A stretch of DNA of 36,803 nucleotides from Candidatus Pacearchaeota archaeon (GTDB lineage: Archaea; Nanobdellota; Nanobdellia; Pacearchaeales; GW2011-AR1): positions 1 through 36,803 of the forward strand of contig VGKP01000008.1 of the NCBI GenBank assembly GCA_016866975.1. The letters are read 5' to 3'. Both the position numbers and the translations under genes were made by a program. The notes below the pieces were generated by a model. That model worked only from the letters and a program-made list of their open reading frames with translations. It ran no database searches and was not told the origin of the DNA. Positions 6,389 through 30,963 of this stretch are shown here, one piece after another (the first letter of the stretch is position 1; the number at the start of each line of letters is the position of its first letter).

Positions 6389-9300
6389 ATGAAAAGAGCA
6401 GGTGTCGCATTTGTTATGTCAAGGAACTTGACTAAAACTCCAGCTTTTAAGCTGGAGTTGTTCCTTGAGCATCCAAAAAAAGAGCGCCTGCATCAAACTG
6501 CGGCTTTTAAGCCGCAGTGGCGCATCGTTTTTTTGATTATTTCTGCTATCGCCGTATTCTTTCTGACTTTGATATCTGTACAAGGAATCTCTGAAGGGAC
6601 TGCTTTTCCTGATGGTAAATATTGCAAAGACAGTGACGGCGGAATATTCTCTTTCCAGAGAGGAGTAGTAGATTCAATAAATTTTTTAGGAATCCCAAAA
6701 AAGTATGAAGACAGATGTCTAGATATGAAAGGGAAAAGTTTTGTAAGAGAGTATTATTGCGATAATGAGAGAGGAAAATGGCAGGAGATGCCTTGCCATA
6801 GTGGATGTGACTTGAGGAAATGCATGCCTTCAAAAGTAAGCATAAAACTAGAAATGACTAAGGAACATTATGCTGCAGGAGAACTGATCGAATTGGCAGG
6901 GTACAAAAAGCTTGATTCCAAATCTGGTGCAGGCGCGGAAAAAATATCGCCTCTTACAGGAAGAGCCGTTGGTATTGGTAGTGAGGGGAGTGGTGGAGGA
7001 AGTGGAAGCGGCTCAGGATCTGAAAGATATTGTGCTTCAACACAATTGTTTGCCAAATTTTCTCTTGAAAATGCCAGACAAAAAAGGGAACTGGCTTCCC
7101 TGCAGAGGGACCTAAATTCATTGGCAAAGGAATCTTGCTCATCAAACAGTGAGTTTTTTGAAGAAGAAGTGGTGCCTTTGATAGAGATGAGAAAAGAGCT
7201 TCTTATAGAACTTATCCGCAGGTCTCCAGTTGCAGCACTTGAGACAAAACCTCTCCCTTCTCATTTTACAGAGAGGCTTAGTGATGAAGAGAGAATAAGT
7301 CTATTGGAAGACAGGAGTCCAAAAGAGGGTTATTTTGATATTGTCCATGAAGAAGATGGCAATGGGCTTGGCAAGAAGTTTCATTATTATTTACGTACTC
7401 AAGGAGATAATCAGAAGAAATATGAAGCTTTTCTTGCTCATGGTGAGCTACAAGAGCATCCCGGCTCTAAAGTCATTGTGCAGGGCCTTGCCTTAGATAA
7501 TGTTCTGGCATTGGATGATTCTCCTGCAAAGACGCAAGTCATTGATAAACCAATCACTCCAGCTCAGGAAAACCTTGGCAAGCAACGCGTCCTTGTCATA
7601 GTATCCAAAATAGAAGGCGTTCCTGCTCCTACGAGTGTTGAGGAAGCAAGGAAAGTTGTATTTGAAGAGGTGCAGGGATTTTATGATGATACATCATATG
7701 GAAAAACAGAACTTATTGGAAAAGTCATTGGACCATATGACTTAAAGTATTCAGAAGATAATAAGTGCAATGAAATAAAACTTCTTCTAAAAGAGGCGTT
7801 TAACCGTAAAGATATTGAATCGTTTGATTATGACCGACTTATCCTTGCTGTGCCTTGTACTCCTGGATGTAATTGTGCTGGAGGATCTGGAACTGTTGGG
7901 AAGATGATGAATTATGAACTTCCTAATGGAAAATATGCAAATTTTAGTGCTTCTTGGGACTTTGTTTTCTCTAAATTTGTTGTATCCCATGAACTGGGGC
8001 ATAATTTTGGAGCCCATCACGCAAACAAATATGAGTGCAGGAAGGATGCGGCAGATTATAGTGGGCTTGAAGTATATGGTCCTGCAAAATCATGTGAGAA
8101 TATGGAGTATGGAGATTCATACGATGTAATGGGTGGCGGTGGCTCATTCAATGCGCCCCATCGCTCCGAGGCAGGATGGCTTTCACCAGAGAATACTAAA
8201 ACTATTGAAGAAGGAACTTTCGTTCTGCGGCCACTTAATAAGAAAGTCTCTCCCGGGACACTCCAGCAGATCCGCATACCTGTCAATTTTGAGTCTGGAT
8301 TTTACTTTCCACCCGAAAATATCTTTTATACTGTCGAATTGAAGTTGCCTTCCAAGGAGGATAAACTCTCTGCGCCTACTGTTTTTCTCCATCTTGCAAA
8401 AGGCTCTGATGATGGAAGTTTTACGTTCTTACAGACCACTCTCTTTGAGCCAAGTGCAACTTCCGAAACTATAATTAATCCAGATGGGACACAAATCAAA
8501 GAGATACAGACCCATAATTCTTTGAAGATACTGAGTCCTTACATTGATCCTTGGAATGGAGTGCAAATAAGCCTTGTTAGTATAAGCGAAGAAGGGGCGG
8601 AGATAAAGGTTGAGAAGTTACAGAAATCTGGCATTAATTTTCAGAAACCTCTTGTTCATTATAATTTTGATGAGCAGACACAACCAAAGGTTCTGAATTT
8701 GGATGCTGATGGATATAGTACTGGACGCTTTAAAGACTCCTCTGAGAATGGTATTTATGCAAAAATTAAGGACAAGGTTCTTCGTATTGGAGGAGGGGTA
8801 TACGTTATGCAAGACTCAGCTTCCCAAAATTATGATAAAATACCTTCGCATATCTCTCTGAGTAATTATCCGCTTTCCTTTATCCAGACACAGAATAAGT
8901 TCACTGTTTCACTTTGGGTACATCCACAATCTTTTTCTTCATTATCTACATCTGTTTATTCAGGCAAGGGAATATCGATTCATATAATGGAAAACGGGGG
9001 AGTGTGGGCCAGTTCTCTTTTCAAGAATGTCCTTTATAGTTCGCCTTCTTACCATTCTGTTTTCTTAGCAGAAGTTGAGTATCGTGAACCTCTTAAGCTC
9101 ATGGAATGGCATCATATTGTCGTTCGTTATGATGGGTCTGAAATGTCTCTTTTTGTTGATGGAGTACTGCGTGATAAAAAATCTTCTCAAAAAATATACC
9201 CTATAGATTCTTCAAGCGAGTCTAAAGAGCATCCTCTTACAAAAGTTCATTTTGGAAGGTATGGGGACCATATCCTAGGTCCCTATTATTCTGAAGGGAT

Positions 9301-15348: not shown

Positions 15349-15470
15349 ATGTCAAGGAACTTGACTAAAACTCCAGCTTTTAAGCTGGAGTTGTTCCTTG
15401 AGCATCCAAAGCACGAGTGCCTGCAACAAACCACACTCTTCAGAGTGTGGTGGCACATCGTGCTTTTGAT
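15349..15470 (+). repeat. Palindromic AT-flanked element, copy C (120 nt + AT), intergenic
   Basis: 119/120 identical to the reverse complement of 20767-20886. Confidence 0.95.
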
Positions 15471-16304: not shown

Positions 16305-16422
16305 GTCGGGAACCGATGAAAACCACACCTTTCAAGGTGTGGTGGTTCCCGAGCATCTCCAAAAACGAGCGCCTGCAACAAACCTCGGCTTTTAAGCCGA
16401 GGTGGCGCATCGTTTTTGTGAT
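16303..16422 (+). repeat. Palindromic AT-flanked element, copy D (118 nt + AT), variant arm 1
   Basis: ATG-TC-GGGAACC...ACCACACCT-ttca-AGGTGTGGT-GGTTCCC-GA-G-CAT, then arm 2 as in copies A and H. Confidence 0.92.
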
Positions 16423-20536: not shown

Positions 20537-20619
20537 AATACCTCCTTTCACTGTTATGATGTGCTTTCATTAGGCTGAGGGTGTATTTAAAGCTTATTTA
20601 TCACCTAGAGTTTCCGACT

Positions 20620-21891
20620 TTAGCTTATAAATACCTCCTCAAACCTCTCTAGTCTATCAGGTTTATTTTCTATCACAACAATCTCTCTGACAAGAGAGAT
20701 TGTAGATTTCTCTTTGAGATAAGCACAGCATTCTCCGATAGTCATAGACTTTCCAGACCGATACATCAAAAGCACGATGTGCCACCACACTCTGAAGAAT
20801 GTGGTTTGTTGCAGGCACTCGTGCTTTGGATGCTCAAGGAACAACTCCAGCTTAAAAGCTGGAGTTTTAGTCAAGTTCCTTGACATAAAAAGGCTCAGCA
20901 CTGCATAGGCCATGGTAGCAAGGATTGAATGTCGAACAATCCCTTCTCTTCTTGCGAAGAAAACCGTAGCAAAGCCAAGGTTTTGTTTTATGTCTCGATG
21001 GTACGTTTCTATTTTCCATCGCAGTTTATATGCGCTTATTATCTCAGCGGCATCATTGTCAATGTTAGTTGAAATAAGATGAGCTTTGCCAACAAGCTCA
21101 TCATCTTTGTTTGTCTGTTCTGATATGATCATCTTTACCGACGGTAGATTGTTCAGTATAACAATTGAAGACCACGTCTGATAAGTGTTGCCTTTAACAA
21201 CTGTTTCGTTCAATTTCTGAGAGTGGATTCTCTCAGAAATAAAAGATAAGGATTGCCATCTCCTTTTCTTGTGCAACTTTATCTTCCTGTTTGTCATTAT
21301 AGAACAAACAACTCTTGTCTTCATTTTGAGGCATTTTTTAATAAGTTCATGGTCTGAATACCAAGAGTCAAATAAAATCGTGTGAATCTTGATTTTTAAC
21401 GACGATAATCTATCAATCAAAGATTGAGCCATCTCAATCTTCGAGTCAGTATTTTTTGAATATAGCTCTGGGAAAATTGGTAATTGTAATAATGGAGTCC
21501 AAAGCAGAGCAGTAAAGAACTGATGTCCTTTAATTTGCTTTCCAGAATTATGGTCATGATGATACTGTGCTTCTTGCACGGTATCTCCATTCCTTTCAAC
21601 TAATGTATCGTCTATAATCAGATAAACTGGAGTATTCTTGAAGAGATACCTTGCTTTCTCCAAGTATCTCTTTGTAAGCATTTCTTGTTCACATTTTGCT
21701 TCTGTGATGGCATAATTCAGTTCAGATTGATGCCTTATTTCAGAGGAAGCCTCTGAAATTTTCTTTACAGTCTTATCCGCTAGTGAGATCAGGCCATTGA
21801 CATACTGAACGATGCATCTAAAGCTGCCTTTCGTAAACGCCTTCCTAGCAAACGCTAATATACTCTTTACCTCTTTTATAATCGGAAGCAT
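20620..21891 (-). CDS. IS701-like DDE transposase with 40-aa in-frame insert
   Basis: LIIDDT, ILFDSWY and YKLRWKIETYHRDIKQNLG (DDE with Y-x2-R-x3-E-x6-K signature). Confidence 0.9.
   Translation of the reverse strand: MLPIIKEVKSILAFARKAFTKGSFRCIVQYVNGLISLADKTVKKISEASSEIRHQSELNYAITEAKCEQEMLTKRYLEKARYLFKNTPVYLIIDDTLVERNGDTVQEAQYHHDHNSGKQIKGHQFFTALLWTPLLQLPIFPELYSKNTDSKIEMAQSLIDRLSSLKIKIHTILFDSWYSDHELIKKCLKMKTRVVCSIMTNRKIKLHKKRRWQSLSFISERIHSQKLNETVVKGNTYQTWSSIVILNNLPSVKMIISEQTNKDDELVGKAHLISTNIDNDAAEIISAYKLRWKIETYHRDIKQNLGFATVFFARREGIVRHSILATMAYAVLSLFMSRNLTKTPAFKLELFLEHPKHECLQQTTFFRVWWHIVLLMYRSGKSMTIGECCAYLKEKSTISLVREIVVIENKPDRLERFEEVFIS
20765..20886 (-). repeat. Palindromic AT-flanked element, copy E (120 nt + AT), in-frame in transposase
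   Basis: Encodes MSRNLTKTPAFKLELFLEHPKHECLQQTTFFRVWWHIVLL. Confidence 0.95.
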
Positions 21892-21898
21892 AATGTCG

Positions 21899-21920
21899 AG
21901 CCTCCCTGTAAAGGGAGGCT
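21899..21920 (-). promoter_or_regulatory. Perfect 9-bp hairpin covering the SD-like GGAGG of the transposase
   Basis: Minus strand reads AGCCTCCCT-ttac-AGGGAGGCT-cgacatt-ATG. Confidence 0.6.
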
Positions 21921-22007
21921 ATGCTTCTACAACTATTTTTAGATTTATTTAAAAAGGATTTTCGGAAACTCTAGTTATCACGCCGAGGAGAATGTTTGTA
22001 AAAATTT

Positions 22008-30716: not shown

Positions 30717-30788
30717 GCTCCCATAGTTTATCGGATAGAATGCAACCTTGCGGAGGTTGAGGGCGAGGTTCAATTCCTCGTGGGAGCG
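30717..30788 (+). tRNA. tRNA-Arg (anticodon GCG), intron-less, CCA not encoded
   Basis: Acceptor GCTCCCA/TGGGAGC; anticodon arm CAACC-TTGCGGA-GGTTG; T arm CGAGG-TTCAATT-CCTCG. Confidence 0.93.
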
Positions 30789-30836
30789 TATGAATTGAAA
30801 GTGCTCACAGAACTTCGTTCCGTGGCAACCTTCGTG

Positions 30837-30946
30837 AGGTCAAGGAACTTGACGCAAACCACACCTCATCGGGAATCTAAGATTCCTGACTGTTATCGAG
30901 GATTTAAATCCTTGAGGTTTAGGGCGTGATGGCGCATCGTGCTTTG
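30837..30946 (+). repeat. Palindromic element copy F: about 60-nt short form carrying the 51-nt module (30867-30917)
   Basis: GTCAAGGAACTTGAC-GCAAACCACACCT[51 nt]TTTAGGGCGTGATGGCGCATCGTGCTTTG. Confidence 0.85.
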
Positions 30947-30963
30947 AACGCATTCACTCAGGT

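Follow-up and report, generated by a model that had tools for sequence, protein, structure and literature searches.

The window, by which is meant the whole 36,803-nt stretch of DNA analysed here, belongs to the genome assembly of a DPANN archaeon (G000; 806 kb in 31 contigs, 89% complete) and carries on its minus strand, at 20605..21974, an insertion sequence (IS) of the IS701/IS4-like type. Its ends were set by DNA alignment with a related copy (locus L002; 79-86% identity) in a genome of the same genus, G015, and homology between the two begins and stops exactly at the inverted ends. The latter are 13-bp terminal repeats that match perfectly (20605..20617 and 21962..21974; CTAGAGTTTCCGA). 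On either side lies the same 7-mer, a perfect target duplication (20598..20604 and 21975..21981; GTGATAA on the minus strand), and the G015 copy has a 7-bp target duplication of its own, TAATTTC. A genome search found no further copy of this IS in G000, where it is thus single-copy. The ORF at 20620..21891 (minus strand) encodes a DDE transposase of 423 aa with a Tn5-like fold and Pfam matches to DDE_5, DDE_Tnp_1 and DDE_Tnp_2. Three IS701 models head its NCBIfam matches, with scores of 148, 137 and 113 bits that all stay below the curated cut-offs (170, 150 and 250, respectively); the Y(2)R(3)E(6)K motif of IS4-type transposases is present in the homologue alignment. Scanning the IS for sigma-70-type promoters and terminators was uninformative, the host being an archaeon.

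In minus-strand translation the ORF reads ...YAVLSLF, then 40 additional residues, then MYRSGK..., downstream of the catalytic motif, as the initial annotation had it. Alignments with 8 and with 73 homologues confirmed this arrangement: the motif (Y288-R291-E295-K302) is invariant and lies upstream of the 40 residues, which form a single block unique to the window protein. In the larger alignment the block separates F335, conserved in at least 90% of the sequences, from an invariant Met. A search of 5.8 billion protein sequences returned 333 relatives of the transposase; the best 119 of the 333, the window's own protein excluded, measure 375-391 aa, apart from one 312-aa fragment, and all are without the 40 residues. 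The annotation had allowed that all homologous transposases might carry the segment. Every homologue listed is without it, and an ancient transposase domain was rejected as an explanation because the segment is missing from all of them. Relatives more than about 80% identical to the window protein were encountered neither in the protein search nor in the alignments. The closest genomic copy of the IS, that of G015, is uninterrupted and has a single frame of 394 aa; aligned with it, the window sequence shows a gap of exactly 120 nt at the insert. The empty site in G015 reads ...GTTTAT|GTTTCG and the one reconstructed for the window transposase is CTTTTTAT|GTATCGG. A 24-nt exact pattern spanning the empty junction had no match among the JGI metagenome contigs. 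Removal of the insert gives a 383-aa protein and reduces the IS from 1370 to 1250 bp, in agreement with the annotation.

The inserted element occupies 20765..20884 and is exactly 120 nt long, provided that the AT at 20885-20886 is counted as part of the target. AT is found on both sides of nearly every copy of the element, so that a 2-bp AT duplication and the lack of any duplication give the same sequence, and the boundaries are fixed to within 2 nt. Over the 122-nt stretch 20765-20886, one base (position 20799) differs from another copy in the window (15349-15470), as originally reported, and from a copy elsewhere in the genome (G000:C9:20890-21011). Since no more than this one base separates it from two sister copies, the insertion is recent. 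The 40-aa segment is therefore what it had been taken for, a recently inserted mobile micro-element in the transposase of an IS whose ends are intact; the event is a real and ordinary case of one transposon landing in another.

Read along the minus strand, which is its top strand, the element extends from GTCAAGG to GCTTTTGAT and directly follows the target TTAT (20885..20888), contributed by the codons TTT-ATG for F335 and the conserved Met. It consists of two modules, of types H1a and H2c. The left-end module, hairpin 1 (20834..20883), comprises an outer stem of 9 bp, a one-sided bulge of 8 nt and an inner stem capped by TTTA. A linker, GCATCC, and hairpin 2 make up the right-end module (20765..20833), which ends in the tetranucleotide TGAT (20765..20768). 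Hairpin 2 repeats the layout of hairpin 1, an outer stem being followed by a bulge of 8 nt on one side and a TTTA-capped inner stem, and just 5' of each inner hairpin foot lies a putative guide, AAAA on the left (20865..20868) and CAAA on the right (20805..20808). The base that distinguishes the element from its two sister copies creates a G-T mismatch in hairpin 2, within the inner stem. Folding of the element as single-stranded DNA gave two bulged hairpins at -39 kcal/mol, with a z score of -9.6. The hairpins fill the element, placing palindromes close to both termini, and the ends themselves, GTCAAGG... and ...TTTTGAT, are not complementary and form no terminal inverted repeats. At 120 nt the element is too short for a transposase gene; its sole stop-free forward frame is the one read through in the transposase, and this frame has no stop of its own. 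Compensatory changes were found in 22 of 44 base pairs among 12 aligned copies from 9 genomes, affecting both stems in the case of hairpin 1.

The element belongs to a family with 53 full copies in the 806 kb of G000 by pattern search and 60 by covariance model; nhmmer was also used. Copies are mosaics of left modules (H1a, H1b) and right modules (H2a, H2b, H2c). Within the window, members are found on the plus strand at 15351..15470 (H1a+H2c, following CTAT), the sister copy that differs by 1 nt; at 6418..6537 (H1a+H2a, following TTAT); and at 16305..16422 (H1b+H2b, 118 nt, following TCAT). Of the three H1a+H2c copies, two lie within genes. Longer variants in G000 bear one or two extra hairpin modules. 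In two that lie in the window, at 1-138 and 30831-30961, the loop of an inner hairpin is replaced by an additional module of two hairpins, about 51 nt in length; the second variant follows TGAG, has CAAA as its left guide and is situated 43 nt downstream of a tRNA gene (30717-30788). Outside this genome, a covariance-model search detected the family in 16 of 61 genomes sampled from the taxonomic family. Rfam searches of the whole window at gathering scores, and of 20700-20950 at E values up to 1, returned no match to the element; the one hit was a tRNA elsewhere.

The family has a target preference. TTAT precedes 41 of the 53 copies, against a background frequency of 0.85%, T occupies position -4 in 47 of 48, and 49 of 53 end in TGAT. 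Target conservation is one-sided, with TT at -4/-3 on the 5' side only and an unconserved 3' flank, and insertion is orientation-specific, 3' of TTAT. Such one-sided and oriented targeting is the signature of IS200/IS605 elements. In IS608, the cleavage tetranucleotides pair with guides located 5' of the hairpin feet according to the scheme C1-G2, C2-G1, C4-G4 (PMC3201880). When this rule is applied here, TTAT predicts the guide AAAA and TGAT predicts CAAA, and exactly these sequences adjoin the inner hairpin feet on their 5' sides. The right guide CAAA is invariant in the 12 aligned copies. Variant left guides appear, in part, to follow variant targets: copies with CAAA come after TGAT or TGAG in three cases out of three, and copies with TAAA after TAAT in two out of five, variant copies being few.

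From these features a mode of movement can be proposed. Both inner hairpins would be bound by a Y1 (HUH) transposase provided in trans, and the four bases 5' of the hairpin feet would specify cleavage, AAAA at the TTAT of the flank and CAAA at the TGAT of the right end. The top strand would then leave the donor as a circle and insert again 3' of a different TTAT, no target sequence being duplicated. In the present instance the target would have been the coding-strand TTAT of TTT-ATG (F335-M336), the element landing in the sense orientation after codon position 2; being 120 nt long and stop-free in the frame in which it landed, it would have left the ORF open by chance. Excision of IS200/IS605 elements reseals the donor at the target tetranucleotide (PMC3201880), and by the same process removal of this element would be expected to restore the 383-aa ORF exactly.

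Among described elements the closest parallel is with the palindrome-associated transposable elements (PATEs) of Haloquadratum walsbyi, which are derivatives of IS605-type elements reduced to their ends (Dyall-Smith et al. 2011, PMC3119063). Like them, the element is too short for a transposase gene and has no terminal inverted repeats, its palindromes near both ends resemble those of the IS200/IS605 type, it follows a short 5' targeting sequence, and it exists in many near-identical copies. No target duplication is evident either, which here is indistinguishable from a 2-bp AT duplication; with the exception of this point, the sequence agrees with the description of a PATE throughout. It differs from PATEs in consisting almost wholly of two nested bulged hairpins, each inner hairpin being enclosed in an outer stem, in the free recombination of its H1a/b and H2a/b/c modules, in its DPANN host, and in having struck a DDE-type IS. 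Insertions of PATEs into other mobile elements are common in the Haloquadratum genome, and the published table lists none in a canonical transposon (PMC3119063). On the combined evidence it is likely that the 40-aa segment represents a recent 120-nt, two-hairpin, PATE-like passenger of the IS200/IS605 type in an IS701/IS4-like transposase gene, whose frame remained open by chance.

The resemblance extends to the "peel and paste" elements, IS608 and the IS200/IS605 group (PMC3201880, PMC5934647), in the single orientation of insertion 3' of a tetranucleotide, in a right end with its own tetranucleotide, and in 4-nt guides 5' of each hairpin foot that fit the cleavage sites by the C1-G2, C2-G1, C4-G4 scheme. 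The left cleavage site lies about 20 nt from the hairpin foot, compared with 19 in IS608; on the right the distance to the inner hairpin foot is 20 nt as against 10 nt. Other differences from IS608 are that neither tnpA nor tnpB is present in cis and that outer stems enclose both ends. Rickettsia palindromic elements (RPEs) and other intragenic MITEs (PMC10969869) are likewise small palindromic repeats that can be read through in frame, and this aspect of the locus is already known from them; in-frame insertion is the rule for RPEs in Rickettsia, whereas only 2 of 14 sense copies of the present family are open (see below). REPs, with their associated RAYTs (PMC8266576), are likewise hairpin repeats in dispersed positions and the presumed substrates of a Y1 HUH enzyme. 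Each REP, however, is just one short palindrome, REPs cluster near a RAYT gene that is domesticated and present in single copy, and the Y1 protein encoded in G000 scores as IS200 and not as RAYT.

That protein, specified by G000:C10:122-589, is an intact IS200-family Y1 transposase of 155 aa whose HLH and Tyr motifs can be read from the translation. In NCBIfam it scores 77.8 bits against the IS200 transposase model (cut-off 55) and 31.2 bits against the RAYT model (cut-off 80). The left end of its IS200 is cut off by the contig start. At the right end of this locus (G000:C10:1-608; L013/L058), a guide, GAAA, precedes an 8-bp hairpin that has a TTTA loop and, in its 3' arm, a single bulged T; TCAT lies 10 nt beyond the foot. 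Right ends of three relatives in the same clade have the form GAAA-C-7 bp-TTTA-7 bp-G followed by TCAT 10 nt on, which the G000 right end shares except for its bulged T, and obey the IS608 rule. Those left ends of the clade that could be placed come after TTAT (two loci) or CTAT (one). The hairpins of the element share this design, NAAA-C-7 bp-TTTA-7 bp-G, and a left-end stem of the clade in genome G061, CTCCAGC/GCTGGAG, is the H1a stem of the element. The likeness emerged only when hairpin design was compared within the closest clade: nhmmer and pattern searches detected no element-like ends beside the first 15 Y1 loci, and at two later loci nhmmer gave weak matches to the left hairpin (E = 8e-4 and 0.01). 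An autonomous element with precisely the ends of the passenger did not turn up among the Y1 loci examined. Across the 61 genomes, Y1 genes and the element occur together in 9, the element alone in 7, Y1 alone in 11 and neither in 34, a weak association (odds ratio about 4) in a set of incomplete and related genomes; Y1 was not detected in genomes with 30-37 copies of the element, which are 88-91% complete. Genome searches of G000 detected no TnpB gene. The C10-type Y1 transposase is put forward as a candidate partner, the best evidence for it being the shared hairpin design, which is of a comparative kind. A second, different IS200-type element was noted at two contig ends (G000:C6:1-210 and C12:26700-26912; L014, L015). 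Its right-end hairpin is CCCCACGG/CCGTGGGG, and the pairing scheme of IS608 holds here as well, the guide being GATG and the end TCAC; having a different hairpin and ending in TCAC, it was set aside as a poorer candidate.

Other origins for the element were weighed. The AT dinucleotides that border nearly all copies, and the fact that taking out 120 nt leaves one AT, could denote a MITE of the classical kind, mobilised by a DDE transposase with duplication of 2 bp, AT, at the target. We regard this as very improbable, since such a reading is at odds with the non-complementary ends, with target conservation confined to the 5' side, with the fixed orientation of insertion relative to TTAT and with a hairpin design that matches IS200-clade ends; the ends of the host IS, too, are unrelated to the element. 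The strong covariation of the stems, together with the many copies located in former ORFs (14 sense versus 5 antisense), might instead point to activity as RNA, either as an intron-like spliced segment or as a dispersed structured RNA gene whose intragenic copies are harmless. In archaeal introns of the bulge-helix-bulge type, both junctions lie in 3-nt bulges flanking a 4-bp helix. When the element was folded with its flanks no such motif was seen at the junctions, the 5' junction being unpaired and the 3' junction lying inside a stem, and the intron reading was rejected. Covariation is equally expected of hairpins read as single-stranded DNA, and the design shared with IS200 ends explains the structure. 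The five antisense intragenic copies, the absence of an Rfam match even at E values up to 1 and the failure to find a reverse transcriptase in a genome search of G000 also argue against an RNA-level function, to which we give hardly any credence.

Since many contigs of the assembly end inside repeat copies (see below), a misassembly at this 60-copy repeat might be suspected. Its probability is negligible: the two flanks continue each other within a single transposase gene, in frame and joined exactly at TTAT, and the same 423-aa protein is recorded on three contigs in the protein collection.

The initial annotation describes the micro-element as parasitising the transposase in frame. The restored ORF contains 16 TTAT sites in the sense and 12 in the antisense orientation. 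H1a-type copies add 120 nt and are stop-free in one forward frame alone, and the phase required for read-through occurs at 8 sites, all of them sense; the chance of an open frame is therefore 8 in 16 for sense sites and 8 in 28 for both strands. In-silico excision of the 53 copies produced junction-spanning ORFs for up to 19 (14 sense, 5 antisense). Most intragenic copies truncate the gene: in 10 of the 14 sense cases the element comes after a TAT codon (phase 0), and a stop is met five codons into it. The second open, in-frame case besides the transposase is G000:C19:4465-4586 (L032), in sense orientation and phase 2. There the element interrupts an ORF of 1515 aa, for which Pfam gives no match, within a hydrophobic stretch near its N terminus; with the insert the open frame measures 1566 aa. 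With 8 of 28 sites giving an open frame and a second case at hand, the open frame in the transposase is nothing special and stands at the level of chance, and no special relationship is needed to account for it. Selection for coding compatibility of the kind seen with RPEs was rejected for the same reason, only 2 of 14 sense copies being open.

Nor is the transposase insert the best evidence of mobility, as had been claimed, or the only evidence, at least four other genes being cleanly split. Clean interruptions by copies of the element were observed at C1:116034-116969 (L029), C25:5749-6369 (L030), C3:47265-48251 (L031) and C2:34347-34958 (L033). By Pfam, the genes affected encode a helical domain of the 5-hmdU DNA kinase type (interrupted at 223|225 of the profile), a NUDIX protein, an EamA transporter and a HAD hydrolase. 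Taken together, junctions are depleted in ORFs, where 21 of 53 are found as compared with 81% of all TTAT sites, and this fits purifying selection or a preference for intergenic sites. The picture is that of a small, 0.8-Mb genome undergoing a recent burst of insertions with several genes interrupted. The transposase insertion supplies, for DPANN archaea, in which mobile DNA is little described, an example of a cleanly filled site of a mobile element made of hairpins only, and ties the element's hairpins and its TTAT target to a resident clade of IS200-type transposons. Its further value is that it marks a dated event and offers a substrate on which excision could readily be tested.

Whether the chimeric transposase still functions was approached through structure models and conservation. 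AlphaFold modelled an uninterrupted homologue (P0002) with a mean pLDDT of 90 and a pTM of 0.87, and the model matches the Tn5 transposase (4dm0_A) over its full length (E = 2e-14, TM 0.68). In this model a continuous helix, residues 315-339, spans the insertion point with a pLDDT of about 92. The model of the interrupted protein has a mean pLDDT of 68.7, with values of 24-48 over residues 341-400, and shows helices 315-340 and 363-379 flanking a disordered middle. The rest of the protein is well preserved. It keeps 52 of 53 residues invariant in the 73 homologues, and the number of its deviations among 134 highly conserved columns, 4, is average (mean 3.9). The exception among the invariant residues is K199M: codon 199 (window positions 21295-21297) specifies Met where all 73 homologues have Lys, and this may be an independent lesion. 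The gene is thus otherwise undecayed, and yet, according to the models, the insert breaks a conserved helix. As the insertion lies inside a confidently predicted, conserved helix of the Tn5-like fold, the transposase is probably impaired.

The contrary view, that the 423-aa chimera is still active and the IS hauls the element as cargo, with the insert tolerated as an extra helical hairpin, we consider rather unlikely. It can draw on an ORF that is open and of full length, on the retention of nearly all invariant residues with an average number of deviations, on the perfect IS ends and target duplication, on the partial rebuilding of the native local sequence at both junctions (LSLF-M and VLL-M), and on the predicted prolongation of helices on either side of the disordered middle. 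It has to contend with an insertion point within a helix that is continuous in the uninterrupted homologue, flanked on one side by a nearly invariant residue and on the other by an invariant one within the helical C-terminal portion of the fold, with the fall in model confidence over residues 341-400, with the replacement of a Lys that is invariant elsewhere and with the presence of the IS as a single copy in G000. Hitch-hiking as such is trivially possible if the transposase, or a relative acting in trans, works, because an element inside an IS travels with it. It seems conceivable, although improbable, that the insert constitutes a reversible switch on the DDE transposase, one class of transposon gating another, or that the chimera is active with its 40-aa helical hairpin. 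If the switch existed, the transposase would be silenced while occupied and, excision of the IS200/IS605 type being seamless, the exact 383-aa ORF would return afterwards.

The distribution of the family also bears on the assembly itself. Many contigs of G000 begin or end within repeat copies (C5:2, C7:2, C15:2, C16:4, C22:6, C24:1, C31:1693 and C3:53082), as does the window at both of its extremities (positions 1 and 36803). The repeat family is therefore a main cause of the fragmentation of this assembly.
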